Positions 1,849 to 53,151 of a DNA stretch of 64,000 nucleotides are shown here, piece by piece. The first letter of the stretch is position 1. Every line of letters starts with the position of its first letter. The DNA is from Verrucomicrobiia bacterium (GTDB taxonomy: Bacteria; Verrucomicrobiota; Verrucomicrobiia; Palsa-1439): positions 28,284 through 92,283 of the forward strand of contig JBEKBH010000001.1 in NCBI GenBank assembly GCA_050015495.1. The letters run 5' to 3'. Under the pieces are notes generated by a model that saw nothing but the letters and a program-made list of their open reading frames with translations, made no database searches and was not told where the DNA came from. A program made the translations under genes and the position numbers.

Positions 1849-4800
1849 ATGGGCAATCGCGACGAACGTACCAAGCTGCTGACCGCATTGCTGGACGAAC
1901 GCATCCTCGTGCTCGATGGCGCGATGGGCACGATGATCCAGCAGCGCAACCTTTCTGCCGACGACTTTGGCGGCCCCGCGCTCGAGGGCTGCAACGAAAA
2001 CCTCGTGCTCACGCGGCCCGACGTGATTCTCGACATCCATCGCCAGTACTTCGAGGCGGGCGCGGACATCGTCGAGACCGACACGTTCGGCGGCACGCCG
2101 CTCGTGCTCAACGAATACGGCCTCGCCGACAAATGTTTCGCACTCAATGCCACCGCAGCGAAACTCGCGCGCCAAGCCGCCGCCGAGTTCTCGACCCCGG
2201 CGAAGCCGCGCTTCGTCGCCGCGTCCATCGGCCCGACCACGAAAGCCATCACGGTCACGGGCGGTGTGACGTTCGCGCAATTGATCGACCATTTCTATCA
2301 ACAGGTCCGCGGACTCGCTGAAGGCGGCGCCGACATCCTCCTCGTCGAAACCTGCCAGGACACGCGCAACATCAAGGCCGCGCTCATCGGCATCCAGCAG
2401 GCCTTCGACGAACTCGGTTATAAACTTCCGATCATGGTCTCGGGCACGATCGAACCCATGGGCACGATGCTCGCCGGCCAGGCCGCCGACGCCCTCGTCG
2501 CGTCGCTCCAGCACGTCGACCTGCTCAGCATCGGCCTCAACTGTGCGACCGGTCCCGAATTCATGACCGATCACATCCGCACCATCCATCAGATGGCCAA
2601 CACGCGCGTCTCCTGCTATCCCAACGCAGGTTTGCCGAACGAGGAAGGTCTGTACCTCGAAACGCCGACCTCGCTGGCGTCGGCGTTGGAGCGGTTCGTG
2701 AAAAACGGCTGGCTCAACATCGTCGGCGGCTGTTGCGGCACCACGCCGCCCCACATTAAAGCCATCGCGCAGATGGTCGACGGCAAACCCCCGCGCACAT
2801 TCCGGGCCGCGCGCAAATCCTGGTACACCGGCATCGAACTCGTCGAGGCGACCGACGACAATCGCCCGCTCATCGTCGGCGAGCGCACCAACGAGGTCGG
2901 CTCGCGCGCGTTCAAGCGCCTTATCACCGACGAGAAATTCGAAGAAGCCACCGAGATCGCCCGCGCCCAGGTCAAGAGCGGCGCACACATCATTGACATC
3001 AACCTCGAAAACACCGACCGCGACGAGTTGGCCGACATCGACCGCTTTTACGAGAAGGTCATTCACAAGGTCAAAGTGCCGTTCATGATCGATACGACGA
3101 ACGCTCGCGCCATCGAGCGCGCGCTCACGTATTGCCTCGGCAAAAGCATCATCAACTCGATCAATTTCGAGGACGGCGAGGAAAAATTCCACAAAGTCCT
3201 GCCGCTCGTAAAGAAGTTCGGCGCGGCCATCGTCATCGGTTCCATCGACGAGGACAAACTCCAGGCCCAGGCCATCACGCGCGAACGCAAACTCGCCGTC
3301 GCCCGGCGCGCCCGGGATTATTGCGTCGAGCGCGGGATCGCGGAAGAGGATTTGATCTTTGACGCGCTCGTGTTCCCGTGCGCCACCGGCGACGAGAACT
3401 ACATCGGCAGCGCCGTCGAGACCATCGAGGGCGTGCGCCTGATCAAACAAGCCCTGCCCAAATGCAAGACCGTCCTCGGCGTGAGCAACGTCAGTTTCGG
3501 TCTGCCGCCCGCCGCGCGCGAGGTCATCAATTCCGTCTTCCTCTATCACGCGACGAAAGCAGGTCTCGACCTCGCCATCGTCAACGCCGAGAAACTGGAG
3601 CGTTACGCCACGATTCCCGACAAGGAAAAGAAGCTCGTCGAACATCTTCTCTGGAACCTGCCGTTCGCCGGCTTCGATGCGCCCGACGATTACCGCCAGC
3701 AGACCCGCGAACAGCGCATCGCGATCAACCAGCATCACATCGCCGCCATCAATGAGCATTTTCGCACCGCCGAGAGCCGCGTCAAAAAGAAAACGTCGGA
3801 CCTCCCGCTGAATGGTCGCCTCGCCAATTACATCCTCGAAGGCTCGAAGGAAGGTCTCATCGACGATCTCAACCTCAAGCTGAAGGAAGCCGCGCCGCTC
3901 GACATCATCAACGGCCCGCTCATGGACGGGATGAAAGAGGTCGGCCGCCTGTTCAACGCCAACGAGTTGATCGTCGCCGAGGTGCTGCAAAGCGCCGAGG
4001 CCATGAAAGCCGCCGTCGCGCACCTCGAACAATTCATGGAGAAGAAAGCCGATTCGACGAAGGGCAAGGTCCTCCTCGCCACCGTCAAGGGCGACGTGCA
4101 CGACATCGGCAAGAACCTCGTCGAGATCATCCTCTCGAACAACGGGTTCAATGTCATCAATCTCGGCATTAAAGTCCCGCCCGAGGACCTGATCAAGGCC
4201 TACCGCGAGCACAAGCCCGACGCGATCGGCTTGTCCGGCCTGCTCGTCAAAAGCGCCCAGCAAATGGTCATCACCGCGGGCGACCTGAAACAGGCGGGCA
4301 TCACCGTCCCGTTGCTCGTCGGCGGCGCCGCGCTCAGCGACAAGTTTACCCGCACCCGTATCTCGCCCAGCTACGAGCGCGTCGTCGTCTATTGCAAGGA
4401 CGCCATGACCGGCCTGTCGATCATGAACCGGCTCATGGACCCCGCCGAACGCGACAAACTCGCCGTGGAACATGCCCCATCTGGAGGGCCACGCTCCGTC
4501 GTGGCCGCTGTAGACGAATTCCCGGAAACCACGCAGCGCAGTTCGCGCGTGCGGATCCTGCCGCCGCGCCCCGCGCCGTACGCCGACCGCAAAGTGCGCG
4601 ACGTGCCGCAGCTCCGCGAGATTTGGGAATACATCAACCCCCAGATGCTCTACGTCCGCCATCTCGGGTTCAAATCCAATTTCGAGAAGGCGCTCGCCGC
4701 CCGCGACCCGAAAGCGCTGGAATTGGCGAGCCTCGTCGACGACGTGAAAGCCGAGGCCGCCAAATTCATGAAGGTCAAAGCCGTCTGGCAATTCTTCGAT

Positions 4801-5493
4801 GCCGAAGCGGCGGGTAATTCGATTAAACTCTTTACCGCCGGAAGTTGTCATTCTGAGCGAAGCGAAGAATCTCAGTCGTCCGGGAAAACGACAGAGACCC
4901 TTCGACAAGCTCAGGGTGACAGATCGGAGAAAGCGGTGTCACTCCATACCTTCCATTTCCACCGTCAGCGGAAGCCGGATGGGCTTTGCCTGTCCGATTA
5001 CGTCATGCCTCCGGCTCGTTCCCCTCGCCCCTCGGGGGGAGAGGGTCAGGGTGAGGGGGTGCTCGTCCGTGATTCGACTGCCCTCTTCGTCGTTGGCGCG
5101 GGCGCCGGCATCCGCCACCGCGCCGAGGAATACAAAGCCAAAGGCGAATACCTCAAATCGCACGCCCTGCAAGCGCTCGCCATCGAGACCGCCGAAGGCT
5201 GCGCCGAATGGCTCCATCGCCGAATCCGTGAGGACTGGGGGTTCCCCGATCCCGCCGACACGACCATGATCGACCGTTTCCAGGCCCGCTACCAGGGCAA
5301 ACGCTACAGCTTCGGCTACCCCGCCTGCCCCGCCCTCGAGGATCAGGCCGGGATTTGGAAATTATTGAGGCCGGAGGACATTGGTGTTCAACTCACGGAA
5401 GGGTTTATGATGGACCCAGAGGCGTCGGTGAGTGCGCTGGTGTTTCACCATCCCGATTGCACGTATTTTGGTGTGGGAGATGTGACGGAATGA
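1849..5493 (+). CDS. metH: Cobalamin-dependent methionine synthase MetH (Hcy-binding, pterin-binding, B12-binding and AdoMet activation domains)
   Basis: A 1214-aa ORF carries the expected MetH domain order. The N-terminus reads LDGAMGTMIQ, with GLNCATGP and GGCCGTTP in the Hcy-binding domain. The B12-binding region includes VKGDVHDIGKNLV, and the C-terminus has GYPACPALEDQ in the activation domain. Two short in-frame repeat-derived insertions sit in the activation domain (see the repeat features). Confidence 0.95.
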   Translation: MGNRDERTKLLTALLDERILVLDGAMGTMIQQRNLSADDFGGPALEGCNENLVLTRPDVILDIHRQYFEAGADIVETDTFGGTPLVLNEYGLADKCFALNATAAKLARQAAAEFSTPAKPRFVAASIGPTTKAITVTGGVTFAQLIDHFYQQVRGLAEGGADILLVETCQDTRNIKAALIGIQQAFDELGYKLPIMVSGTIEPMGTMLAGQAADALVASLQHVDLLSIGLNCATGPEFMTDHIRTIHQMANTRVSCYPNAGLPNEEGLYLETPTSLASALERFVKNGWLNIVGGCCGTTPPHIKAIAQMVDGKPPRTFRAARKSWYTGIELVEATDDNRPLIVGERTNEVGSRAFKRLITDEKFEEATEIARAQVKSGAHIIDINLENTDRDELADIDRFYEKVIHKVKVPFMIDTTNARAIERALTYCLGKSIINSINFEDGEEKFHKVLPLVKKFGAAIVIGSIDEDKLQAQAITRERKLAVARRARDYCVERGIAEEDLIFDALVFPCATGDENYIGSAVETIEGVRLIKQALPKCKTVLGVSNVSFGLPPAAREVINSVFLYHATKAGLDLAIVNAEKLERYATIPDKEKKLVEHLLWNLPFAGFDAPDDYRQQTREQRIAINQHHIAAINEHFRTAESRVKKKTSDLPLNGRLANYILEGSKEGLIDDLNLKLKEAAPLDIINGPLMDGMKEVGRLFNANELIVAEVLQSAEAMKAAVAHLEQFMEKKADSTKGKVLLATVKGDVHDIGKNLVEIILSNNGFNVINLGIKVPPEDLIKAYREHKPDAIGLSGLLVKSAQQMVITAGDLKQAGITVPLLVGGAALSDKFTRTRISPSYERVVVYCKDAMTGLSIMNRLMDPAERDKLAVEHAPSGGPRSVVAAVDEFPETTQRSSRVRILPPRPAPYADRKVRDVPQLREIWEYINPQMLYVRHLGFKSNFEKALAARDPKALELASLVDDVKAEAAKFMKVKAVWQFFDAEAAGNSIKLFTAGSCHSERSEESQSSGKTTETLRQAQGDRSEKAVSLHTFHFHRQRKPDGLCLSDYVMPPARSPRPSGGEGQGEGVLVRDSTALFVVGAGAGIRHRAEEYKAKGEYLKSHALQALAIETAEGCAEWLHRRIREDWGFPDPADTTMIDRFQARYQGKRYSFGYPACPALEDQAGIWKLLRPEDIGVQLTEGFMMDPEASVSALVFHHPDCTYFGVGDVTE
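4845..4940. repeat. Miniature inverted-repeat element (core GTCATTCTGAGCGAAGCGAAGAATC) inserted in-frame in metH
   Basis: Imperfect terminal inverted repeats are gtcattctgagcgaagc (left) and gacaagctcagggtgac (right). The three-frame translations give the recognisable CHSERSEESQ / VILSEAKNL peptides. In the MetH frame the element encodes SCHSERSEESQSSGKTTETLRQAQGDRSEKAV, an extra ~30 aa relative to the canonical MetH activation-domain loop. Confidence 0.55.
5022..5059. repeat. GC-rich miniature repeat (CTCGCCCCTCGGGGGGAGAGGGTCAGGGTGAGGGG family) inserted in-frame in metH
   Basis: It is the same family as the intergenic copy at 16743-16779 (ctcgccccttcagggagaggattaaggtgagggg). In metH it encodes RSPRPSGGEGQGEG, inserted between conserved blocks LCLSDYVMPPA and VLVRDSTALF. 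Confidence 0.6.
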
Positions 5494-6875
5494 ATGATTT
5501 GCCGACTGAACTTGTTCCGAGATTTCGGACTGATAGGCCGAATGAAACCGTCAAGGTCATAGCCGACCGGATGTCGTTGATCCGCGATGACGAGGTGCTC
5601 CTCTCGGGGGATGGGGAGATCGAAATGTGCTGGCTGCCTAGCCCGGGCGTACGTTTTTCCATAAAGAGGAAGTCGGAATATCCGCATGAATTCTTCAAAT
5701 ATTTGGGCGATCCCATTCCGCAGGGGTGCAAGATCGTTCTTGAGTCTTCTGGCAAGAGGTTACCCGTTTTTGTCACCAGCCATAGCTTTCCCGAGGGATT
5801 CAGGATGTATCACGGACGTGTCCAAGACGATGCGATTCCAAGCACCTTTGAGATTAAGGAAGCGACGTTCCATTTGGCGAACTTTAAAGCCGTTTTGTGT
5901 GAGGCAGTTGCATATCAGCAAGGGGGTGGCTCGCGGCTGGGTCGCTTCCGATTGGAGGCAGACGGATGGACGATTATTGTGGATGACATCCAAAACGGCG
6001 GACGGCACGGCGATTTGGAGAAGCAGCTGGATGCACAGGGCGGTTACGCGATTACGCACGTAGGGCGAATTGCACGAGCAGACGGCGGGGCTTTTACGGG
6101 TGACCAATGTACTGTTCTGCACGACAGGCTGTTTTGGTTCTTCTCGTTCTGTCGTTGCTGCAAAACAGGTCCCATCCTTGTGGGGCTAACCGGGAAGAAC
6201 GAGAACGAGAACCGGCTATCGCTGGTGGAGCGTTCGGTCAGCAGCTGGCAGTATCGCTCGAGCTGGGTGCCGGAAACCGAATTTCAAGTTCTCCCGTTGC
6301 TGTTTCCGGGTTTCCTCAAACGGATAAATGAACCCTCTTGGTCGGACACGATAGCATACGCGATTCATTGGTATTTGGAAGTGCACGATCAGTCGGGAGC
6401 TATCCAAGGGGCAATTGTGTTCGGTCAGACGGCCCTCGAAATGTTAGGCTGGAGTCTACTGGTTGATGACCTTCGAAATATAAGTCGTGAAGGCTACGAT
6501 AAGTTACCGGCAAGTGATAAGATTCGCCTGCTCTTGACCACAGTCGGTGTACCTCGGGAAATCCCGCTGTCTTTCACGAGGCTCTTGCAGGCGGCAAAAG
6601 CGGAGAACTGGCAAGACGGTCCGGACGCTGTTTCAGGGATTCGCAATCGAATAGTCCATTCAAGCGCGGATAAGCGTAAGGCTCTAAGCAGGGTAGAGTT
6701 CTCGGCCATCTGTGAGGCTTGGGAGCTCTGTCTTTGGTACAACGAGCTTACGCTTTTGCGTCTGTTCGATTATTCCGGCCAGTATTTCGACAGGACACGG
6801 AGCGCGAAATACCGATCGGAGGGACACGCGCCCGTGCCTTGGGCCGCAAACGGTCAGGTGGGCAAGCCCTTATGA
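5490..6875 (+). CDS. Hypothetical 461-aa protein with a C-terminal RN-x3-H (HEPN-like) motif, ApeA-like architecture; candidate abortive-infection/toxin gene
   Basis: The ATG at 5490 overlaps the metH TGA (ATGA overlap). The gene has visibly lower GC than its flanks. The C-terminal region has GIRNRIVHSSADKRKAL, which fits the HEPN R-x4-6-H signature. The N-terminal ~300 aa have no motif I recognise. The ApeA N-terminal-domain plus HEPN architecture is named from memory. Confidence 0.6.
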   Translation: MNDLPTELVPRFRTDRPNETVKVIADRMSLIRDDEVLLSGDGEIEMCWLPSPGVRFSIKRKSEYPHEFFKYLGDPIPQGCKIVLESSGKRLPVFVTSHSFPEGFRMYHGRVQDDAIPSTFEIKEATFHLANFKAVLCEAVAYQQGGGSRLGRFRLEADGWTIIVDDIQNGGRHGDLEKQLDAQGGYAITHVGRIARADGGAFTGDQCTVLHDRLFWFFSFCRCCKTGPILVGLTGKNENENRLSLVERSVSSWQYRSSWVPETEFQVLPLLFPGFLKRINEPSWSDTIAYAIHWYLEVHDQSGAIQGAIVFGQTALEMLGWSLLVDDLRNISREGYDKLPASDKIRLLLTTVGVPREIPLSFTRLLQAAKAENWQDGPDAVSGIRNRIVHSSADKRKALSRVEFSAICEAWELCLWYNELTLLRLFDYSGQYFDRTRSAKYRSEGHAPVPWAANGQVGKPL

Positions 6876-6978
6876 GGCATCGGGGTCACGTCTAATCATT
6901 GGTACATTTGCAACTCTGCCCCTTTGAACACCGCCACGCGCGGATCAACCACTTCCCGGTTGCTCGGAGCACATCGGC

Positions 6979-7242
6979 TCAACGGAAGTACAGCTTCTCG
7001 ACAATCACGACGCATAGCGCAATTCCCAATCCCCACAGGGCGCCACAGAACAACAACCATGCCGCCGTGCGTTCCCGCTGCGCCATCTCCTGCGCGTGAA
7101 CTTCCTTGAGATGCGCGATTTCCTGCGCATGACGCTCGTCGGTGGCGCGGGCTTCCTCACGCAGAAGTTCGACGTGTTCCCTGGAGATCGAGCCGCTGCC
7201 GTGCTCTCGAATCAGTTTATCCGCCAATTCCACGAGTGCCAT
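6979..7242 (-). CDS. Small hypothetical protein (87 aa) with C-terminal transmembrane anchor
   Basis: The ATG lies at rc 7240-7242. The protein begins [18 protein letters not shown], has a His/Glu-rich coiled stretch, and ends in the hydrophobic helix [22 protein letters not shown]. The longer 156-aa track ORF is an upstream extension. Confidence 0.35.
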
Positions 7243-7509
7243 AATGCGGTCCCTCCGATGAGTCGGGGTTGTCGGTTGCCCGGCATCGACCCGAATTCTG
7301 CCACGGGCGGGCCGCTTCCCGAAAGCCAAAACCGGCGGGTCCGCCACCGCGAGCAAGCGCTGTCCCAATCTCCGGGTGGAGGGACGCGCTCCGTCGCGTC
7401 CGCTGATATGAGAGATTACAGACGGCCACGACGGAGCGTGGCCCTCCAAGTCCGGTCATTGCACGGCTTGCAATCGGTTCTGCCTGTCACTACACTTTGC
7501 GTCAAACCC

Positions 7510-8025
7510 ATGAAGAAGACATCCATGACGTTACATCGATTTGCCGCCACACACGGACTCGTTCTCGCGCTTGTCGCTTTTGCGACGGGTTGTTCGCAGA
7601 GCGAGGCGCCCAAACAAGACCAACCGGCGGCGCCACCCGTCGTCGCCACAACATCTCAATCAGTGGCCGCCGTTGCGGCACCTCAACAGGGAGCTACTGT
7701 GACCGAATTGAAAATGGAAGACACCAAGGTCGGCACGGGCGCCGAAGCCGTGACGGGCAAGAGCGTGACGGTCCACTACACGGGCTGGCTCACCGACGGC
7801 ACCAAGTTCGACTCGTCCAAGGACCACGGTCAGCCGTTCACTTTCCAACTGGGTGCTGGTCAGGTCATCAAGGGCTGGGACCAGGGCGTTGTGGGCATGA
7901 AGGTGGGCGGCGTCCGCAAGCTCACCATCCCCGCCAGCCTGGCCTATGGCGACAGGGGCGCGGGCGGCGTGATTCCTCCCGGCGCCACGCTGGTGTTCGA
8001 AGTGGAACTCTTGGGCGTAAACTAA
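7510..8025 (+). CDS. FKBP-type peptidyl-prolyl cis-trans isomerase, lipoprotein
   Basis: The N-terminus [30 protein letters not shown] contains a lipobox. The FKBP domain is shown by [34 protein letters not shown] and [13 protein letters not shown]. Confidence 0.85.
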
Positions 8026-15225: not shown

Positions 15226-16494
15226 TCACACCAGCCACGACGGTATCGTCTCGCCCGAAACCAGGTCCTTGACCGACTCCCGACGCCGCACCAGTTCGCA
15301 CCGGCTCCCGTTCACCATCACTTCCGCCGGACGCGGCCGCGCATTGTAGTTCGACGCCATCGCCATCCCGTACGCGCCCGCGCTCATCACGGCCAGCAGC
15401 GCATCCTCCTCCACCGCCGCCACACGCCGCCCTTGGGCCAGAAAATCGCCCGACTCGCAAACCGGCCCGACGACGTCCGCCGTGATTTTCCGGCGCGCCG
15501 ACCTCTCGGCCACAGGAATGATCTCGTGATGGCTCCCGTACAGCGACGGACGAATCAGGTCGTTCATCGCCGCGTCGACAATCACAAACCGTTTCACGGG
15601 CGTCTGTTTGATGTGTACGACCCGCGTGACCAGCACGCCGCCGTTGCCGACAATGAAACGTCCCGGCTCCAATAAAATCCTCAGCCCCAGCTTCTTCACG
15701 TGCGGCGTGACCGCGCGGGCAAATTCCACCGCCGTCGGCGGACGTTCCTTTCGATACCGAATGCCGAGCCCGCCTCCCATGTCGAAGGATTGCAGCGTCC
15801 GGGGCGCAATCTCGCGCACCTGCTCGATCAATGGCGTGATTTTGCGAATCGCCAGCACGAACGGCGCGGTCTTGGTGATTTGCGAGCCGATGTGCATCTG
15901 GACGCCGCGGATTTCGATGCCGTCCAACCGCGCCGCCTGACGGTACACATCCAGGGCGTTCCGGAGCGAAATCCCGAACTTGCTTTCGTGTTTGCCCGTC
16001 GAGATGTAGTGGTGCGTGTCCGGGTCAACTCCCGGGTTCACGCGAATTGCAATCGGCGCCCGCCGGCCCATGCGTCGGGCCACCCCGGCAATCCGCCGCA
16101 ACTCCGGCTCGCTTTCCACGTTGAACATGTAGATCCCCAGTTTCAACGCGTACTCGATCTCGTCCCGCGTTTTGCCCACGCCCGAGAACACGCATTTCCT
16201 CGGATCGCCACCCGCCTGCACCACCCGATACAATTCGCCGCCGCTGACGATGTCAAAACCCGTTCCCGACCGCGCCAGCGCGCGGAGCACTGCCAGGTTG
16301 CTGTTGGCCTTGACCGCAAAACAAATCAGGTGATCGAGCGACCCCAGGGCCTTGTGCAGATCGTCGCACTGGCCCGTGATATGTCCCTGGCTGTACACGT
16401 ACAACGGCGTGCCGAATTCCCGGGCGAGACGCCGCAGCGGCACACCCTCGCAATACAACTCGCCCTTCCGGTATCGGAACGCGTTCATTGGCAT
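15226..16494 (-). CDS. lysA: Diaminopimelate decarboxylase LysA
   Basis: The 422-aa protein has the PLP site FAVKANSN. The blocks GFDIVSGGEL, HIGSQI, GGGLGIRY, EPGRFIVGN and CESGDFL match the Orn/DAP decarboxylase family. Confidence 0.95.
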   Translation of the reverse strand: MPMNAFRYRKGELYCEGVPLRRLAREFGTPLYVYSQGHITGQCDDLHKALGSLDHLICFAVKANSNLAVLRALARSGTGFDIVSGGELYRVVQAGGDPRKCVFSGVGKTRDEIEYALKLGIYMFNVESEPELRRIAGVARRMGRRAPIAIRVNPGVDPDTHHYISTGKHESKFGISLRNALDVYRQAARLDGIEIRGVQMHIGSQITKTAPFVLAIRKITPLIEQVREIAPRTLQSFDMGGGLGIRYRKERPPTAVEFARAVTPHVKKLGLRILLEPGRFIVGNGGVLVTRVVHIKQTPVKRFVIVDAAMNDLIRPSLYGSHHEIIPVAERSARRKITADVVGPVCESGDFLAQGRRVAAVEEDALLAVMSAGAYGMAMASNYNARPRPAEVMVNGSRCELVRRRESVKDLVSGETIPSWLV

Positions 16495-16620: not shown

Positions 16621-16701
16621 AACTTGGCTTCGTTTTTGGCTTTGTTTCAGTAACTTTTCCACGCCGGCTTGCATAAACTTGGGTTCGTTTTGCGAAAAAC
16701 C
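16621..16701. repeat. Two tandem copies of a TTGG(C/G)TTCGTTTT-core intergenic motif; the same core recurs at 47447-47570
   Basis: The first copy is aacttggcttcgtttttggc at 16621-16640. The second is aacttgggttcgttttgcgaaaaacc at 16676-16701. The second copy is nearly identical to agcttgggttcgtttcgcaaaaacccc at 47544-47570. Confidence 0.5.
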
Positions 16702-16742
16702 ATTTTTTTGGAGGGCGAGCCTCATCCCCAGCCCCCCGCGTC

Positions 16743-16779
16743 TCCTCGCCCCTTCAGGGAGAGGATTAAGGTGAGGGGT
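16743..16779. repeat. GC-rich miniature repeat (same family as the in-frame metH copy at 5022-5059)
   Basis: The sequence ctcgccccttcagggagaggattaaggtgagggg can be compared with ctcgcccctcggggggagagggtcagggtgagggg in metH. It is intergenic, upstream of lysA. Confidence 0.6.
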
Positions 16780-17047: not shown

Positions 17048-17908
17048 TCACGACAGAACGTCATCGGGCGAAACTTCAAGAATATCTCTGCAAAACTCTG
17101 ACATTATATTTCTACAGCGAACCATCGCTGGCTTCTCAACCGTTCCTTCGTTTGCCCACTTCGGAAATCCAAATCCAGCCTTCCACGAGGCGTTAAGAGG
17201 TAGAATCTGTCCAAATTCATCTCCCTCTTGCATGAAAACCCCTCGATAATGAATGAACTTGTAGAACATTCGCTTGTCAAATTGCCGCGTCAACGTCAGG
17301 ACGATAGTAAACGCGGGAATAATTTTTCCAGTGCCTAGGGTCTTTAGGTAAGGCGCTTCCATCGAGCCGCTTCCCGCATGAATCAAAAGTCCATTACAAT
17401 CTTCAAATGGCTTTATGAGCACACTCTCTTTTGGTAGGAATTGTGCTTTTAGCCTACGGTCCAATGTGGCACCCCCCGCTTCGTTTAGTGTGCTTTTTTC
17501 TCGGTCAAATACCGAGCATACAACCGCGAGAAGGCGCAACTCCTCAAACTTTTGTCGAGACGTGTTCGTGACCATGATTGTGCTTTTAAACGAACCTTCG
17601 CCGTGGTCGATAACTACCGAAATGGTGGGCTTGCTGGCATTCTGTATTTGTTCTTGGGTTTGTCTTATCTGCTCACGTTGCAACCACAGGGCGCAAACGA
17701 CACCAGCAAACGCTAGACCGGCAAATAGAGAATTCACTGCACCGAACATGTCTCCGAATTGTCCACGGTCAGAATAGGGTGAATTCGGATTTGGGGGAAC
17801 GAAATGCAAAATCAACAACCACGCTGACCCCCATAGTGCAATCACTACTGCGAAAACTAAAAACACCCACCAGTACCGCTTTGCAAATTCCAGTGCCTTC
17901 TTCATCAC
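17048..17908 (-). CDS. Island gene D: hypothetical 2-TM membrane protein with ~200-aa C-terminal soluble domain (candidate membrane-disrupting effector)
   Basis: The 286-aa protein has TM helices near residues 12-33 (WWVFLVFAVVIALWGSAWLLILHF) and 55-76 (FGAVNSLFAGLAFAGVVCALWL). The gene sits in a low-GC segment, 19 nt downstream of gene C. It has no motif I recognise. Confidence 0.6.
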   Translation of the reverse strand: MMKKALEFAKRYWWVFLVFAVVIALWGSAWLLILHFVPPNPNSPYSDRGQFGDMFGAVNSLFAGLAFAGVVCALWLQREQIRQTQEQIQNASKPTISVVIDHGEGSFKSTIMVTNTSRQKFEELRLLAVVCSVFDREKSTLNEAGGATLDRRLKAQFLPKESVLIKPFEDCNGLLIHAGSGSMEAPYLKTLGTGKIIPAFTIVLTLTRQFDKRMFYKFIHYRGVFMQEGDEFGQILPLNASWKAGFGFPKWANEGTVEKPAMVRCRNIMSEFCRDILEVSPDDVLS

Positions 17909-46405: not shown

Positions 46406-47359
46406 ATGACGAACACAATCACGCAAATCGATCTGGCGGGCGTCCCGAAACTCAAGAGCGGCAAAGTCCGCGAGGTCTTCGACCTCGGGGATTCGCTGCT
46501 GTTCGTGGCCACCGACCGCATCAGCGCGTTCGATGTCATCCTGCCCAACCCGATCCCCGAAAAGGGCCGCGTCCTCACCGCCCTGAGCGAATTCTGGTTT
46601 GGCAAGACCCGGCACATCGTCGAGAACCATTTCATCACGTCCGATTTGGCCGGGCAGGCGCGCCGTTTGCCGAAATCGGTGGCCGCCGCGCGGGCCGCGC
46701 TGCAGGGCCGCTCGATGCTCGTGCGCAAGTGCCAGCCGCTCCCGGTCGAATGCGTCGTGCGCGGGTACCTCGCCGGTTCCGGGCTTAAAGAATACAAGCA
46801 GTCGCAAACCGTCTGCGGCATCAAGCTGCCCGACGGGCTTGTCGAATCCAGCCCGCTCCCCCAACCCATTTTCACGCCCGCGACCAAGGCCGAGACCGGC
46901 CACGACGAGAACATCGATTTCGACCGGTGCGCGCAAATCCTCGGCAGACCGCTCGCCGAGAAAGTGCGCGACACCTCGCTCGCCCTGTACAGTTACGCCC
47001 GTGATTATGCGGCCACGCGCGGCATCATCATCGCCGATACCAAATTCGAGTTCGGGCTCCGTTCTGAAACTGTAGCGGCGGTCTATGACCGCCGAGCGGA
47101 TTCGGCGCTCGCAGAGCGCCGCTACAGCGGCCAGTTGATTCTCATCGACGAAGCGCTCACGCCTGACAGTTCCCGTTTCTGGCCCGCCGACGGCTACGCG
47201 CCGGGCAAACCCCAACCGAGTTTCGACAAGCAATTCGTCCGCGATTACCTCGAAACCCTCGATTGGGACAAGACACCGCCGGGACCGGTCCTGCCCGACA
47301 CCGTCATCCGCAAGACCACCGAGAAATACCTCGAAGCGCTCACAAAGCTCACCTCCTAG
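46406..47359 (+). CDS. purC: Phosphoribosylaminoimidazole-succinocarboxamide synthase (SAICAR synthetase, long form)
   Basis: The blocks GKVREVF, FVATDRISAFD, DTKFEFG and LILIDEALTPDSSRFW match SAICAR synthetase. A ~22-aa palindromic-repeat-encoded insertion sits after DTKFEFG. Confidence 0.9.
   Translation: MTNTITQIDLAGVPKLKSGKVREVFDLGDSLLFVATDRISAFDVILPNPIPEKGRVLTALSEFWFGKTRHIVENHFITSDLAGQARRLPKSVAAARAALQGRSMLVRKCQPLPVECVVRGYLAGSGLKEYKQSQTVCGIKLPDGLVESSPLPQPIFTPATKAETGHDENIDFDRCAQILGRPLAEKVRDTSLALYSYARDYAATRGIIIADTKFEFGLRSETVAAVYDRRADSALAERRYSGQLILIDEALTPDSSRFWPADGYAPGKPQPSFDKQFVRDYLETLDWDKTPPGPVLPDTVIRKTTEKYLEALTKLTS
47070..47128. repeat. Palindromic miniature element inserted in-frame in purC
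   Basis: The outer arms are ctgtagcggcg and cgccgctacag. The internal sub-palindrome is ggcgctc gca gagcgcc. In the purC frame it encodes RSETVAAVYDRRADSALAERRYSGQ, sitting between conserved blocks TKFEFG and LILIDE. Confidence 0.55.
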
Positions 47360-47446: not shown

Positions 47447-47570
47447 CCAAACCGAACCCAAACGAACCCAACGCAAAAATCATTTTTCAAAAGTTCTAAC
47501 TACCCGTCCCACAACCTCATTCACACGCACTTTTGATCCAAAAAGCTTGGGTTCGTTTCGCAAAAACCCC
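47447..47570. repeat. Inverted plus direct copies of the TTGGGTTCGTTT-core motif also found at 16621-16701
   Basis: The inverted copy at 47447-47479 is ccaaaccgaacccaaacgaacccaacgcaaaaa. The direct copy at 47544-47570 is agcttgggttcgtttcgcaaaaacccc. It lies in the 600-nt leader upstream of the giant surface-protein gene. Confidence 0.45.
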
Positions 47571-47595
47571 CTTTTTGTGGCTGCGCCCCTTCTAG

Positions 47596-47976: not shown

Positions 47977-50900
47977 ATGCACCGAATGCGGCGCGGTTGT
48001 CTGATCGCGGGATTTCTCGTCTGGATTGCGCTGCCGGCTATCTCGCACGCGCAAACCATTCCCAGCGCTCCAACCAATCTTCAGGCCACCGCGGCATCGC
48101 CATTCCAGATCAACCTGACTTGGATCGACACGTCCACCAACGAAAGCGGATACATGGTCGAGCGGTCGCTCGACGGGATCAATTTCACCCAGATCGCACA
48201 ACTGCTGCCCCAAACAGCGACTTACCGCGACACCGGAGCGTGGCCTGGCACGACTTATTACTACCGCGTACGCGCGTACAATACATCGGGCGACTCGGGT
48301 GTTTCCGCGATTGCGAGTGGGGCTACACCGGCGGTGTGCAACGCATCGGCTGTGGCTTGGGGGTGGAACGGGTACGGCCAAACGGCGGTCCCGACGAATC
48401 TGAGTGGCGTGGTAGCCGTCTCTGCCGGCATGGAGGACAGTTTCGTCTTGCGCAGTGATGGCACAGTCCTCGGTTGGGGCGACAACAGTTATGGGATATT
48501 GACACCGCCCGCCGGTCTTACCGGCGTGGTGGCCGTATCTGCCAATGTTGCCAGTACGCTCGCGCTGAAGAGCGACGGCACCATGGTGATGTGGGGCTTT
48601 GAGTGGGATCAGTTGCCGAATGTGACCGGGGTGGTGGCCATCGCGAATGGATGGCAGCATAGTCTGGCTTTGTTAAGCGACGGCACTGTTATTGGTTGGG
48701 GATTGAACGAGTCGGGTCAGATCAGCATCCCCACAAATCTAGCGGGGGTTGTGGCCATCGCAGCGGGTGGTTATCACAGCCTGGCGTTGAAAAGCGACGG
48801 TACCGTCGTCGGCTGGGGAAATGGCGGGTCGGGACTGGCGACTCCACCGACCAACCTCACCGGAGTGGTCGCGATCGCAGCTGGCGGCCACCATAGTCTG
48901 GCGCTGAAGAGCGACGGCACGGTTGTCGGCTGGGGCGATAACACCTACGGCCAGGCAACACCGCCTGCCGGATTAACTGGAGTGACGGCGATCTCGGCGG
49001 GTTGGCAACATAGTTTGGCCTTGATGAGCGACGGCACCATCATCGGATGGGGCGACGATAGCAATGGCCAAATCAGTCCCCCTGCCGGGCTGGCCGGGGT
49101 CACGGCCATTTCCGCCGGCTACCTTCACAGCTTGGCGGTGGCGCCAGTGATCAACGCGCCGTCAAATCTTACCGCGACGGCAGTTTCGACCAATCAGATC
49201 AATCTGGCGTGGACAAGCAGTGGCCCTGTGGACGGCTTCAACATTCGGCGGGCACCGGACAATGGCGGCAGCCCGGGGGCTTGGACTCAAATCGCGACGG
49301 TGGGTCCCAACACCACGAATTACAATGACGCCGGACTTGCCTCGAACGCAACGTATTGGTACCAACTGCAGGCTTTCACGGTCTGTGGAGTATCCTTTTT
49401 CACGGATCCGGCAAGCGCCGCTGTGCCATCGGTAGCCGCGCCGTCGGGACTCTCGGCAACGGGTGTTTCGGCTGGCCAAATCAATCTCACTTGGACAAAT
49501 AACAGCACGACGGAGAACGGCTTCCTCATCGAACGCGCTCCGGACAACGGTGGCGTTCCGGGCACGTGGACGCAAATCGCCTCGGTCAACTCAAGTACCA
49601 CGGCTTACAGCGATACAGGGCTTCTGCCGTTCACACTATATTGGTACCGCGTACGAGCGTATGACAATAGTGGGGATTCTGTTTATAGCAACTTGGCCAG
49701 CGCGTTCGTCCCGGCTCCGTGTCCGAGATACGTCGCCGGCTGGGGATACAATGCGAGTGGTCAGGCAACGGCCCTGACAGGACTGGTTTCGGCCATTGCC
49801 ATTGCCGCGTTTGGCGATGGGAGCCTCGCACTCACGAGTGATGGCACCGTCCCGTTGTGGGATACGCAAGTGACACCACCAGCAACGTTAACGGGGGTTG
49901 TGGCCATCGCTATGGGCTCTGGATTCAATCTGGCATTGAAGGGCGACGGGACCGTGATCGGCTCGGGTAATGACATGTGGGGTCAACTCACTCCGCCGGC
50001 GGGAACGACGGGCGTTGTTGCCATCGCCGCCGGCGGGTTCGAAAGCCTGGCACTCCAGAGTAATGGCATTCTTGTTGTCTGGGGTGACACCCGCGGCGTC
50101 ACCTCGCTAACCGGAATCGTCGCCATGGCCTCGGGCGATTACCACAGCCTGGCGGTGTACACCAATGGCACGGTGGTTGGCTGGGGTAACAATAACTACG
50201 GCCAAGCGACTTCCCCGCCGGGGTTGACTGGCGTGGTCGCTGTCGCTGTCGGTGACTATCATAGTCTGGCATTGAAGAGCGATGGCACCGTTGTGCAATG
50301 GGGCACCACCATTTATGGGGAGTCCGTGCCGCCGGCAGGTTTGTCGGGCGTCGTGGCCATCGCCGCCGGTGGAACTTTCAGTCTGGCACTCAAGAGCGAC
50401 GGCACCGTCGTCGCTTGGGGTGACAATCAGTATGGGGAGTCGACTCCGCCGGAGGGCCTTGCGAACGTGATCGCCATCGCCGCCGGCTGGGACCACAGTT
50501 TGGCATTGAGCCTGCCATGTCCGTTGAGCGCTCCTTCGGCGTTGACCGCGACCCTTCTCTGGCCAAGCCAGATCAATCTCTCTTGGCTTAACAATTCGTT
50601 TGACGAGGACGGGTTCAAGATTGAGCGCGCTCCGGACAACGGCGGAGTTCCGGGCACTTGGGCGCAAATTGCCACGGTCAGTTCCAACGTCGCCACTTAC
50701 AGCGATACCGGACTTTCCCAAGGTGTGACATATTGGTACCGCGTACGAACCTACAACGTGGCAGGAAATTCCGATTACAGCAACCTGACGAACGCCACGA
50801 TTCTACTACCGCCCGTGGCTCCGTCGGGTCTGACCGCGACGCCGTTGTCCAGTGTCCAAATCAGTTTGTCGTGGACGGACACCGCCAATGATGAGACCGG

Positions 50901-53151
50901 GTTTGCCATTGAGCGCGCTCCCGACACCGGGGGTAGTCCGGGGACGTTCGCTCAGATCGCCACCGTCAATTCGAATGTGACCGCCTATACCGACACGAGC
51001 TTGACGACAAACACGACGTATTGGTATCGCGTGCGGGCGTCCAACGCCGGCGGTTATTCCCCCTACAGTAACCAAGCGGACGCAACGACCTTCCGTCCCC
51101 CTCCTGATTCCTGGATTAGTCTGGCGAGCGGAAAATGGGAAGCAGCAGGAAGTTGGTCGTTGGGCGTGCCGCCTTCGATCCTCCTCACCGGGGAGCTGAT
51201 CACCAACGACAATTCCAAGACAGTCACAATCGATGCTACGACCGTCAGCAATTCCCCCAGCACCCTCACCATCAGCAACCTGACGGTGTCCGCCCCGTCA
51301 GGAGGGACGAATACGCTCCTGTTGACCACCGGGGGCAGTCCAACGCCGCTCCACGTGTTGCGCGGAATCTCGCTTGGGTCGGGCGGCCTGCTGGACATCG
51401 AGAATTCTTCGTTGCAGGTCGACGCGAACACTTTCTGGATTGACGGTACGCTGCTCGTCCAGAACGGTGGTCAAGTTACACCTCCGACACGGCCTGAAGG
51501 GGTCAACCAACTCGTGATCGGCAATGTGGCTACCGGCATGATGGTCGTATCGGCGGGGACGGTTGTGAGCGAAGGGGGTACCGTCGCCTATGAGGCTGGT
51601 TCGCAGGGGACGCTCGTCATTTCGAACGGAGCGACTATCCGGCTCTCATACCTCGCCATCGCTGAGTCTGGCTACTACTCGACGGGCGCTGTGTGGCTCT
51701 CGGGTAGTGAGTTGACCACGACAAACTACGGACAGCCGAATTTTGTGTTCGTTGGCCAGTGGGGCGCAGGCCAGATGACGGTGTCGAATGGCATGGTGCT
51801 GTCAGGTCAAGCCTACGTGGGATACTACCCTGGCTCGTGCGGAACTTTGACCGTGGTCGGTGGCAGCGTAACCCTTTCCTCGGCACTCACTGTCGGCTAC
51901 GACTCCGGTGCGACGGGCGCGGTCTGGCTGGCCGGTGGCCAGCTTGTCGCAAGTGGTAAGGGCACCGCGAGTATCGGCGCGAACGGGGCTGGTCAATTGA
52001 CAGTCACGGGCGGCACCATGCAAGCTTCGTCGATGGTTATCGGGCAGTACGGCGGCTCGCAGGGTTCATTGACGGTGTCGGGCGGCGCGGTTTCGGTCTT
52101 GTCGAGCCTCGTGATCGGCGATTGTACTACGACCGCGAGCGGCCAGGTCGCTGTGGCTGGCAGCGGAAGCCTGTTTGTAACCAACGCGAGCCACACGGCG
52201 TTTCTCGACGTGCGTCATGGCACGCTGATGGTCGGCGCCGGCGGCGTGCTCGTGGCGGACAGGATCGTGGCCACCAACGCCTGCGGGCGGGTCATTCGCT
52301 CAAGCGGAGGCACGATCACCGCCACGACAATGACTCTGGATCCCTCCCTCAGCGCGGTCGGCGACGGTATCCCGAACGGATGGAAACAACAATACGGCTT
52401 CGACCCGTTCGATCCCAACCTCGCCAATGAGGACCTGGACGGCTCCGGGTTCACTGTTTTGCAAGACTACTTGGCCGGCCTCGACCCCACCAATCCTGCG
52501 TCGTCGTTCCGGATTACGGCGATCACTCCGGTCGGTACCGATATCCGGGTGTACTTCACGTCTGTCGGCGGGAAGTATTATTCGTTGCAAAGGTCTGACT
52601 TCATGGGCGGCGCGTGGACGGCCATCGCGACCAATATCCCCGGCAATGACAGCATCCAATGGGTCAAAGATATCGGCGCGGCCTCGCGCCCGAGTGCGTT
52701 CTACCGAATCCTGCTCGAACAGTTGACCAACGCTCCGCCGGTGGACAGCGATGGCGATGGCGTACCGGACTGGTGGACGCAAGAATACTTCGGACATCCC
52801 ACAGGCCAGGCGTCCGATAATTCACTGGCGACGGACGATCCCGACGGTACCGGATTCACCGTCCTGCAGGATTATCTGGCCGGCCTCGACCCGACCAACA
52901 GTGCGTCGTCGTTCCGGATCACTTCGGTCGTGCCGAGCGGCATCGACTTGTTGGTGACGTGGACGATGGGTCCCGGCCGGACCAACGCCCTGCAGGCGAC
53001 GGCGGGGGACGCGACCGGCAGCTACAACACCAACGACTTCGCCGACATCTTTACCGTCACCAACACGGTCGGCACGACGACCAACTACCTCGACACCGGC
53101 GCCGCGACCAACTTCCCTGCGAGATACTATCGTGTGCGTCTGATACCATAA
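47977..53151 (+). CDS. Giant (1724 aa) secreted surface protein: RCC1-like repeats, multiple fibronectin type III domains, PATR/beta-helix repeat region, C-terminal DxDGDG (thrombospondin-3-like) Ca-binding-like repeats
   Basis: A signal peptide is followed by more than 15 repeats of the type GWGxNxYGQxTPPAGLTGVVAIAAGxxHSLAL, which are RCC1-like. FN3-like units have the pattern INLTWTxxSxxExGFxIERAPDNGG..YWYRVRAYN. The region 1100-1450 has repeated GxxxVxxGGxLxV beta-helix-like strands. DSDGDGVPDWW-type motifs sit near the C-terminus. Confidence 0.85.
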   Translation: MHRMRRGCLIAGFLVWIALPAISHAQTIPSAPTNLQATAASPFQINLTWIDTSTNESGYMVERSLDGINFTQIAQLLPQTATYRDTGAWPGTTYYYRVRAYNTSGDSGVSAIASGATPAVCNASAVAWGWNGYGQTAVPTNLSGVVAVSAGMEDSFVLRSDGTVLGWGDNSYGILTPPAGLTGVVAVSANVASTLALKSDGTMVMWGFEWDQLPNVTGVVAIANGWQHSLALLSDGTVIGWGLNESGQISIPTNLAGVVAIAAGGYHSLALKSDGTVVGWGNGGSGLATPPTNLTGVVAIAAGGHHSLALKSDGTVVGWGDNTYGQATPPAGLTGVTAISAGWQHSLALMSDGTIIGWGDDSNGQISPPAGLAGVTAISAGYLHSLAVAPVINAPSNLTATAVSTNQINLAWTSSGPVDGFNIRRAPDNGGSPGAWTQIATVGPNTTNYNDAGLASNATYWYQLQAFTVCGVSFFTDPASAAVPSVAAPSGLSATGVSAGQINLTWTNNSTTENGFLIERAPDNGGVPGTWTQIASVNSSTTAYSDTGLLPFTLYWYRVRAYDNSGDSVYSNLASAFVPAPCPRYVAGWGYNASGQATALTGLVSAIAIAAFGDGSLALTSDGTVPLWDTQVTPPATLTGVVAIAMGSGFNLALKGDGTVIGSGNDMWGQLTPPAGTTGVVAIAAGGFESLALQSNGILVVWGDTRGVTSLTGIVAMASGDYHSLAVYTNGTVVGWGNNNYGQATSPPGLTGVVAVAVGDYHSLALKSDGTVVQWGTTIYGESVPPAGLSGVVAIAAGGTFSLALKSDGTVVAWGDNQYGESTPPEGLANVIAIAAGWDHSLALSLPCPLSAPSALTATLLWPSQINLSWLNNSFDEDGFKIERAPDNGGVPGTWAQIATVSSNVATYSDTGLSQGVTYWYRVRTYNVAGNSDYSNLTNATILLPPVAPSGLTATPLSSVQISLSWTDTANDETGFAIERAPDTGGSPGTFAQIATVNSNVTAYTDTSLTTNTTYWYRVRASNAGGYSPYSNQADATTFRPPPDSWISLASGKWEAAGSWSLGVPPSILLTGELITNDNSKTVTIDATTVSNSPSTLTISNLTVSAPSGGTNTLLLTTGGSPTPLHVLRGISLGSGGLLDIENSSLQVDANTFWIDGTLLVQNGGQVTPPTRPEGVNQLVIGNVATGMMVVSAGTVVSEGGTVAYEAGSQGTLVISNGATIRLSYLAIAESGYYSTGAVWLSGSELTTTNYGQPNFVFVGQWGAGQMTVSNGMVLSGQAYVGYYPGSCGTLTVVGGSVTLSSALTVGYDSGATGAVWLAGGQLVASGKGTASIGANGAGQLTVTGGTMQASSMVIGQYGGSQGSLTVSGGAVSVLSSLVIGDCTTTASGQVAVAGSGSLFVTNASHTAFLDVRHGTLMVGAGGVLVADRIVATNACGRVIRSSGGTITATTMTLDPSLSAVGDGIPNGWKQQYGFDPFDPNLANEDLDGSGFTVLQDYLAGLDPTNPASSFRITAITPVGTDIRVYFTSVGGKYYSLQRSDFMGGAWTAIATNIPGNDSIQWVKDIGAASRPSAFYRILLEQLTNAPPVDSDGDGVPDWWTQEYFGHPTGQASDNSLATDDPDGTGFTVLQDYLAGLDPTNSASSFRITSVVPSGIDLLVTWTMGPGRTNALQATAGDATGSYNTNDFADIFTVTNTVGTTTNYLDTGAATNFPARYYRVRLIP

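Follow-up and report, generated by a model that had tools for sequence, protein, structure and literature searches.

Hairpin repeats in the reading frame of a verrucomicrobial metH gene and varied occupancy of the same loops in its relatives

How does the gene for an essential enzyme come to carry palindromic repeat DNA within its coding sequence? The question is raised by metH, which encodes cobalamin-dependent methionine synthase, in a Verrucomicrobiia bacterium (Verrucomicrobiota; Verrucomicrobiia; Palsa-1439). The gene lies in a 64,000-nucleotide (nt) stretch of contig JBEKBH010000001.1 (assembly GCA_050015495.1, positions 28,284 to 92,283 of the forward strand), which is called the window here and whose own coordinates are used throughout. 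A sequence-only reading had pointed to two miniature repeat elements inserted in-frame in the MetH activation domain at 4845-5059, and had left it between tolerance of loop insertions by MetH, a recently inactivated pseudogene and an assembly artefact. Both elements are confirmed, although the count was short, as a third unit at 4482-4507 had gone unmentioned. Our preferred explanation, to which we give a probability of roughly 0.8 on the strength of sequence comparisons and a predicted structure, is that a working metH took up hairpin repeats of the repetitive extragenic palindromic (REP) kind, or of the kind of REP doublets forming hairpins (REPINs), in-frame at three permissive places.

Hairpin repeats within the metH frame

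The features concerned are as follows.

1849-5493, plus strand: metH, cobalamin-dependent methionine synthase, an uninterrupted open reading frame (ORF) of 1214 amino acids (aa), recognised from Pfam matches and from the ratio of nonsynonymous to synonymous divergence (dN/dS).
4846-4921, plus strand: element 1, a 76-nt palindromic double hairpin at site 1, a beta-hairpin turn (inverted repeat, fold, orthologues).
4850-4870, plus strand: local hairpin of the element 1 left arm, ATTCT-GA-GC-GAA-GC-GA-AGAAT, with the d(GCGAAGC) mini-hairpin word at 4857-4863.
4896-4921, minus strand: element 1 right arm, a TTGTC-loop variant reading TGTCACCCTGAGCTTGTCGAAGGGTC on this strand (inverted repeat, family copies).
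5020-5058, plus strand: element 2, a 39-nt (13-codon) G-rich hairpin unit at site 2, a loop of the activation domain (orthologues, family copies).
16741-16778, plus strand: second copy of the element 2 family, sharing CCTCGCCCCT..GGGAGAGG..GGTGAGGGG.
4482-4507, plus strand: element 3, a single 26-nt REP-type hairpin with a GGCCACG/CGTGGCC stem, in the linker between the B12-binding and activation domains.
7378-7447: two inverted copies of the REP of element 3, forming a doublet between genes, with units at 7378-7401 (plus) and 7424-7447 (minus) (pattern search, compensatory stems).

Element 1 is built from two 34-nt arms (4846-4879 and 4888-4921) that are separated by an 8-nt loop, and it is translated as CHSERSEESQSSGKTTETLRQAQGD. 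Its folding energy is -40.8 kcal/mol on either strand (z = -5.7 on the plus strand and -6.2 on the minus strand), and none of 200 shuffled sequences folds as stably. The stem pairs are ATTCT/AGAAT on the left and ACCCT/AGGGT on the right, and the TTGTC-loop variant of the right arm is also present in copies from Verrucomicrobiae and Methylacidiphilales (stretches L019, L060, L096 and L115). The DNA at 4845-5059 and both peptides read as first described, and the terminal words quoted for the imperfect inverted repeats are found on both strands, with arms that are 74% complementary. The element had been sized at about 96 nt; the palindromic unit is 76 nt, and the trailing SEKAVS looks like native loop in the alignment.

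Element 2 is translated as SPRPSGGEGQGEG, and its fold is unexceptional for its G+C content (z = -0.8). It had been described as a repeat of about 40 nt belonging to the same family as an intergenic copy at 16743-16779, and this holds, with a unit of 39 nt and a copy at 16741-16778 that is probably intergenic, between minus-strand ORFs at 15226-16494 and 17048-17908. In the window, element 2 stands between direct repeats of GCTCGT; these were considered as a target-site duplication and are best read as chance, because no such duplications were detected in copies of the family.

Element 3, TGGAGGGCCACGCTCCGTCGTGGCCG, is translated as SGGPRSVVA. A repeat search of the whole window finds all 26 of its nucleotides again, in inverted orientation, at 7423-7448, and a degenerate pattern of the unit has three window matches where 0.01 are expected. 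The stems of its units differ by compensatory change (GGCCACG/CGTGGCC versus GGACGCG/CGCGTCC), and the 80-nt segment at the 7378-7447 doublet, at -48.0 kcal/mol, is the second most stable fold in the 64 kb.

Orthologous loops and the state of the gene

The lengths of the two activation-domain loops were taken between fixed sequence anchors in 120 homologues. Site 1 is most commonly 11 aa long (54 of the 90 homologues parsed) and is 40 aa in the window, and site 2 is most commonly 9 aa (62 of 110 parsed) and 23 aa in the window; long loops at these sites are restricted to the window's own clade. When the DNA is aligned to four orthologous loci, each site is seen to be cleanly filled or cleanly empty. 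Of the two closest orthologues, locus L001 (protein P0004, 87% identical) is without elements 1 and 2, and L002 is without element 1 and has element 2; L003 and L004 carry inserts of the element 1 family at site 1 and lack element 2. Among the proteins of the set, P0001 carries element 2 but not element 1, and element-1-type inserts are found at site 1 in P0009/P0031 and P0017/P0022. At least eight different repeat-like peptides occupy the two sites within the clade. Beyond the inserts just named, these include at least six at site 1 or 2 of other orthologues, for example GGRASRRAE..SAGASPSQ, GGLRPPNESTAGDAHRAPLQ, VGATSRSRP, VGAVSNRDS and GQASSLP..QAGSSRY. The idea that orthologues carry these residues as native sequence is thus contradicted, since the sites are empty or otherwise filled and the repeats are present elsewhere; with both families abundant in other genomes, the earlier suggestion that MetH tolerates loop insertions of widespread repeats is supported.

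In locus L245 (P0016), the 39-nt unit stands at site 1 and not at site 2, in the same frame and identical to the window copy at 38 of 39 nt. This strongly supports the view of element 2 as a separate unit common to sites and genomes. The window and L002 copies of element 2 have 3 differences in 39 nt, while the proportion of synonymous differences (pS) is 0.50. That in-gene copies are better conserved than the synonymous sites of their host may reflect recent arrival, homogenisation with other copies or the targeting of resident hairpins. In the linker the relatives are of near-equal length, with a net gain of one codon by element 3 relative to L001 and L002, which indicates that element 3 replaced resident sequence; other orthologues carry different repeat-like sequences there, of nearly the same length.

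By alignment of profiles with solved structures, site 1 falls in a beta-hairpin turn at about residues 1015-1020 (RDETRT) of Escherichia coli MetH, and site 2 in a loop at about residues 1049-1056 (PKLSGKAD). An AlphaFold2 model of the activation-domain fragment, built from an alignment of 121 sequences, has a mean predicted local distance difference test (pLDDT) score of 88.8 and a predicted template modelling score of 0.85, and Foldseek matches it to the MetH reactivation domains 8ssd, 8sse, 6bm5 and 1msk (E = 1e-21 to 6e-18). Both sites fall between secondary-structure elements in the model. The pLDDT is 52-62 at fragment residues 131-160 (element 1) and 62-69 at residues 1-20 (the N-terminal linker with element 3), and the dip at element 2 is smaller (about 80 at residues 191-200).

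The recurrence of repeats at these places could also reflect targeting rather than tolerance, with an existing hairpin or REP acting as landing site or recombination partner, a possibility that we hold only tentatively; an equally tentative extension is that one founding loop insert would seed serial replacement by other families. Targeting would account for identical loops that hold different families in related genomes, for a linker that holds varied repeat-like sequences and in which the window REP is a replacement with one added codon, and for in-gene copies that are nearer to their family than the host synonymous sites are (3/39 nt for element 2 against the pS of 0.50). Three of about six recognised repeat loci in the 64 kb sit in the 3.6-kb metH, although this enrichment is soft, as repeat detection in the window was unsystematic. 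Against this, site 2 is naturally longer by 17 residues in the solved, crystallised Thermus MetH (8ssc, 8ssd), which is evidence of plain tolerance, and element 1 has no target motif beyond a T at -1 and an A at +1. Targeting is moreover compatible with uptake of the repeats by a working metH and does not exclude it.

It is improbable that the inserts have been exapted, such that their peptides or their mRNA or DNA hairpins would modulate reactivation-partner binding, translation pausing or mRNA stability. The element sequence is more conserved than synonymous sites and the element 1 hairpin is very stable on the mRNA strand, but family-level homogenisation or recent arrival can explain the conservation, and the occupants of the sites vary among close relatives, some of which are empty, which argues against a required function. 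The pLDDT of 52-62 over element 1 also speaks against such a role, and the weak likeness to two Rfam small RNA (sRNA) models falls far under threshold. Element 1 reaches 23.4 bits against RF02901 (gathering threshold 97) and element 2 reaches 18.5 bits against RF01762, whalefall-1 (gathering threshold 37), and both memberships were rejected; Rfam gives no match at the gathering threshold in the window, and none of 20 metagenome loci, each with an element 2 copy, has whalefall-1 at E <= 0.01. The resemblances themselves are that the consensus of RF02901 (AaHKsRNA41, Aggregatibacter sRNA 41) holds CUGAGCUUGCCGAAG...UUCGGCAAGCUCAG, like the arms of element 1, and that the whalefall-1 consensus, a CUCUCC..GGAGAG hairpin with a downstream AGGGUGAGG, is similar to element 2, although the spacing is 5 nt in element 2 and 24 nt in whalefall-1.

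The gene itself appears to be whole. Five Pfam matches, each over its cut-off, follow MetH order (S-methyl_trans, PF02574; Pterin_bind, PF00809; B12-binding_2, PF02607; B12-binding, PF02310; Met_synt_B12, PF02965; E = 1.7e-88 to 3.6e-20), and these modules are the homocysteine-binding, pterin-binding, B12 cap, B12-binding and S-adenosylmethionine (AdoMet) activation domains. The ORF list and the translation bear out the claim that the frame stays open for 1214 aa, with no stops and no frameshifts across its 1214 codons. The core of the activation domain has a dN/dS of 0.076-0.118 at a dS of 0.67-1.36 against four orthologues. The RxxxGY AdoMet motif is kept as RYSFGY, with R285, G289 and Y290 invariant in 121 sequences, and all 39 invariant activation-domain columns are retained in the window MetH. 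By the available tests, metH is an intact gene that is under strong purifying selection and whose predicted fold is kept.

An inactivated pseudogene whose frame is preserved by chance is accordingly very unlikely, and this part of the sequence-only reading was not borne out. Three foreign segments do lie in one gene, and orthologous metH loci are split by frameshifts in metagenome assemblies (L002, L003, L004), but 1214 codons are without stop or frameshift, domains, motifs and invariant residues are present, dN/dS is 0.08-0.12, comparable inserts persist in several diverged lineages, and the core fold is confidently predicted. An assembly or sequencing artefact is the least credible explanation. 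Repeats are classic sites of misassembly and of chimeric joins, but the metH sequence to the left and right of every element runs on in a single frame, and inserts of these families recur at these sites in independent assemblies from other samples (L002, L003, L004, L245).

Several other aspects of metH organisation were observed. L245 (P0016), at about nt 450-590 of its locus, and also P0015, have a fourth insertion site in the B12-binding domain before VVYCKDAM, occupied by REP-like hairpins (GGACAGGCGTCTCGCCTGTCC) arrayed as three direct copies and one inverted, and translated as GVSPVQLATES three times. In the metagenome assemblies L002, L003 and L004, the metH call is divided into at least two ORFs: L004 has metH ORFs of 812 and 361 aa in different frames with an ATGA overlap, and in L002 the ORFs measure 305 and 385 aa. 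Many homologues in the databases begin at one internal Met (MVITAGDL, MEKKADSTKGK, MDGMKEV). These split calls may be assembly frameshifts or real splits. At the 3' end of metH in the window, a 506-aa ORF at 5355-6875 begins in a different frame and overlaps the gene at 5355-5493; the TTG given as its start probably lies upstream of the real one.

The two wider families and their movement

The description of the elements as widespread repeats is upheld, both families being abundant elsewhere. When a single genome of each species is scanned with the pattern GTCAYYCYGAGC-N(30-60)-GCTCRGRRTGAC, the element 1 family is found in at least 120 genome stretches of more than 10 bacterial phyla, mostly in intergenic positions. 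The matches listed come from Acidobacteriota, Chloroflexota, Planctomycetota, Verrucomicrobiota, Bacteroidota, Gemmatimonadota and Nitrospirota, as well as four proteobacterial classes, Clostridia, Cyanobacteria and Armatimonadota, and among those listed are some genomes with multiple matches. The fractions given below for both families come from non-random samples.

The element 1 consensus is (T)GTCATCCTGAGCGNAGCGAAGGATCT, a variable centre and the reverse complement, and each arm is its own hairpin, ATCCT-GA-GC-GNA-GC-GA-AGGAT. The three variable stem positions form Watson-Crick pairs within the arm in 211-212 of 217 arms (97-98%) and agree between arms in 64-93 of 97 elements (66-96%). The central GCGNAGC, present in 126 of the 217 arms, is a published DNA mini-hairpin word with a melting temperature of 76.5 C (PMC13037366). 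Together this points to a structure that would form in single-stranded DNA. A T precedes 103 of 128 copies and an A follows 99 of 128, with no further target motif. A copy has on average 2.2 open frames out of six, and in 43 of 128 copies the length is a multiple of three, so that about one random insertion in eight (approximately 12%) would keep an ORF open. Long spanning frames are present in 10 of 128 copies, and none of the nine tested places the copy inside a Pfam domain; of two long-frame candidates in stretch L055, the larger was tested. A protein search with the extended element 1 peptide returned no candidate having three common 5-residue words, and a full-text search within the searchable library did not find the element 1 sequence in print. 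We note that L065, from a Thermoguttaceae metagenome-assembled genome, has an in-frame copy (VILSAAKNL...ILRCAQND) within a 1181-aa ORF at 4456-7998 that has no Pfam match; its flanks are protein-like and it is possibly a further coding insertion.

The element 2 family is found in at least 120 metagenome stretches, as copies of 33-41 nt of which 68 of 122 are stop-free in five of six frames. Seven of the 122 sampled copies (about 6%) are in-frame in genes with Pfam matches, the hosts being AlaRS, PGI, PurL, PBP1 (a class A PBP), AtuA, PolB (a family B polymerase) and Methyltransf_28; five of the seven are flanked by the Pfam match on both sides and two are at a domain edge. In stretch L125, a metagenome contig, positions 726-772 match the Acido-Lenti-1 RNA (RF01687) at 48.9 bits (gathering threshold 37), and some 70 nt separate this match from a copy of element 2 at 625-659.

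The elements had been likened to MITEs, miniature transposable elements with inverted repeats. Inverted repeats are indeed present, but two approaches detected no target-site duplication in 128 element 1 copies or 117 element 2 copies: a common substring of at least 6 nt is the longest shared by the two flanks in 3.1% of element 1 copies versus 2.7% of controls, and in 3.4% of element 2 copies versus 3.8% of controls. For want of these duplications the families resemble REPs and REPINs rather than classical MITEs. Imperfect palindromes of 20-40 nt, compensatory stems and inverted doublets, as in elements 1 and 3, are REP/REPIN traits; the GTAG/CGTC tag is absent from elements 1 and 2, and the end of element 1 is (T)GTCA. 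The flanks of 240 family copies, taken to about 4 kb (approximately 1.7 Mb in all, compared by ORF clustering), have no recurrent transposase ORF, the recurrent ORFs being ABC transporters and other common paralogues alone. The flanks of these copies also contain no gene for a REP-associated tyrosine transposase (RAYT, a Y1/HUH transposase), and a search of the flanks found no parental insertion sequence (IS) with the element ends.

On the explanation that we favour, the elements would have arrived in metH by a route that leaves no target-site duplication, for which single-strand hairpin transposition by an HUH/Y1 (RAYT-like) enzyme, or gene conversion from other genomic copies, are candidates. 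Selection would then have kept those events that added whole codons without stops in surface loops. The elements suit such a filter, as element 1 is stop-free in four of its six frames, element 2 spans 13 codons and element 3 is stop-free in all six frames. Refilling of the loops by other repeats in related lineages would follow either from there being few tolerant places, or from a resident hairpin that attracts newcomers or recombines with them.

Several points weigh against this account. No transposase is enriched near the 240 family copies, so the mobilising mechanism is inferred, not shown. The support comes from assembled sequence and not from reads, and enzyme function is likewise read from the sequence and the model, as far as these can tell, while a dS of 0.7-1.4 to the relatives makes dN/dS blind to very recent inactivation. 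Element 1 has no second copy in the visible 64 kb, and it is the copies in other genomes that mark it as a repeat. Element 3 is an equal-length replacement and not a net insertion. The element-1-type inserts split over three subclades of a neighbour-joining tree (36 sequences, 215 columns of insert-free core, without support values), and they may represent independent gains, or an ancient insert with later losses or replacement. The window and L004 also have a common left junction, GGNAGT/TGTCATTC. We considered this common site-1 insert as proof of orthology and rejected it as unproven, because the left-arm loops differ in a 4-nt block (GAAG versus TTGT) and nearer relatives are without the insert.

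A larger proposition is that both families (the double hairpin with GTCAYYCYGAGC-GNA and the unit of 39 nt, CCTCGCCCC..GGGAGAGG..GGTGAGGGG) are undescribed cross-phylum hairpin elements that move as single-stranded DNA without target-site duplication and routinely colonise the loops of essential enzymes beyond Rickettsia, with resident hairpins as targeted landing pads. We regard this as speculative and doubtful as a whole; if true, serial replacement at fixed protein positions would be a general route of loop evolution.

Known systems and significance

Palindromic elements in Rickettsia genes (Rickettsia palindromic elements, RPEs) were reportedly described by Ogata et al. in 2000 (Science 290:347), and we know of no sequence relation between them and the elements of the window. 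As characterised in two later accounts, RPEs are short palindromes that lie in-frame, stop-free and compatible with the fold inside unrelated housekeeping genes, and that are also intergenic (PMC10969869, PMC3733652). The window is alike in having in-frame translated palindromic repeats in a housekeeping gene together with intergenic copies (compare PMC10969869). RPEs are about 100-150 bp and are reported from Rickettsia, whereas the window elements are 26-76 nt with families spread over many phyla, and unlike RPEs the MetH loops are filled by different families in related genomes.

A precedent within the Verrucomicrobiota is that of intragenic GTAG/CGTC REPs, which are most numerous in Opitutus terrae (Di Nocera et al. 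2013, PMC3733652). These REPs and their dimers encode approximately 7-50 aa, sometimes twice per gene, with a loop or linker placement argued, and their hosts include uvrA, purL, DNA ligase and dnaE2 (PMC3733652). Methionine synthase is not in the supplementary lists of that study, and recurrence in orthologous loops is not reported there (PMC3733652). The Opitutus REPs are GTAG/CGTC-tagged and elements 1 and 2 are untagged. An inverted doublet of a GTAG-tagged REP is present in the window at 47070-47127 (CTGTAGCGGCGGTCTATGACCGCCGA / TCGGCGCTCGCAGAGCGCCGCTACAG, arms 85% complementary); it is unrelated to elements 1 and 2, an 80-nt segment there folds at -44.8 kcal/mol, and it is of the classical REPIN type, as in Opitutus terrae.

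With REPINs (Bertels and Rainey 2011, PMC3116915) there are several likenesses: both element 1 and the doublet at 7378-7447 are inverted hairpin pairs that can fold into one, their unit stems are kept by compensatory change, and element 1 copies have no target-site duplication. REPINs are mobilised by RAYTs (PMC3116915), whereas no RAYT is found near copies of the element 1 and 2 families, and where published abstracts describe REPIN families as lineage-specific and vertically inherited, the 26-nt arm of element 1 is conserved over more than 10 phyla. Bacterial MITEs (Correia/NEMIS, ERIC, Nezha; PMC10969869) are similar in being small and non-coding, with terminal inverted repeats and occasional in-frame ORF fusions, but the present families differ from them in having no target-site duplication (128 and 117 copies) and no parental IS found.

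Other repeats in the window include a 34-nt direct repeat (AAACTTGGGTTCGTTTTGCGAAAAACCATTTTTT) at 16675-16708 and 47543-47576, with copies that are 82% identical; the first precedes the intergenic copy of element 2 by 33 nt, and the second and the GTAG doublet are some 400 nt apart. Of all local folds in the window, that at 57913-57992 is the most stable (-50.5 kcal/mol, 78% G+C, arms GGTTCCCGCGCCCGC / GCGGGCGCGGTCACC). Diverged tandem repeat arrays with a spacing of 117 nt, and with larger units of about 285-1092 nt too, occupy 48559-51083 and translate to LALKSDGTVVGWG-like motifs that resemble RCC1-type beta-propeller blades.

Because RPEs and the Opitutus REPs have already been reported, the kind of event seen in metH is a known one. 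What appears to be new, from the comparison of orthologous sequences, is the recurrence at identical loops clade-wide with many families, and the presence of one unit at two different sites of orthologous genes. The two cross-phylum families without GTAG/CGTC tags or target-site duplications have apparently not been catalogued.

The orthologous empty and filled sites show that three selfish repeats, unrelated to one another, can be accommodated by an essential enzyme of several domains, and that two loops in the activation domain of MetH serve the whole clade as sinks for repeats. They also provide a natural series of loop variants for probing the insertion tolerance of the reactivation domain. 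The observations made in Rickettsia and Opitutus are thereby extended to two many-phylum families, with about 6% of the copies of one of them genic in a small sample. For annotation, VILSEAKNL, LRFAQND, SPLPxGEGxGEG and similar peptides, which are frequent in 'hypothetical proteins', are translations of these elements, and where such peptides occur inside real genes they mark insertions and not errors.

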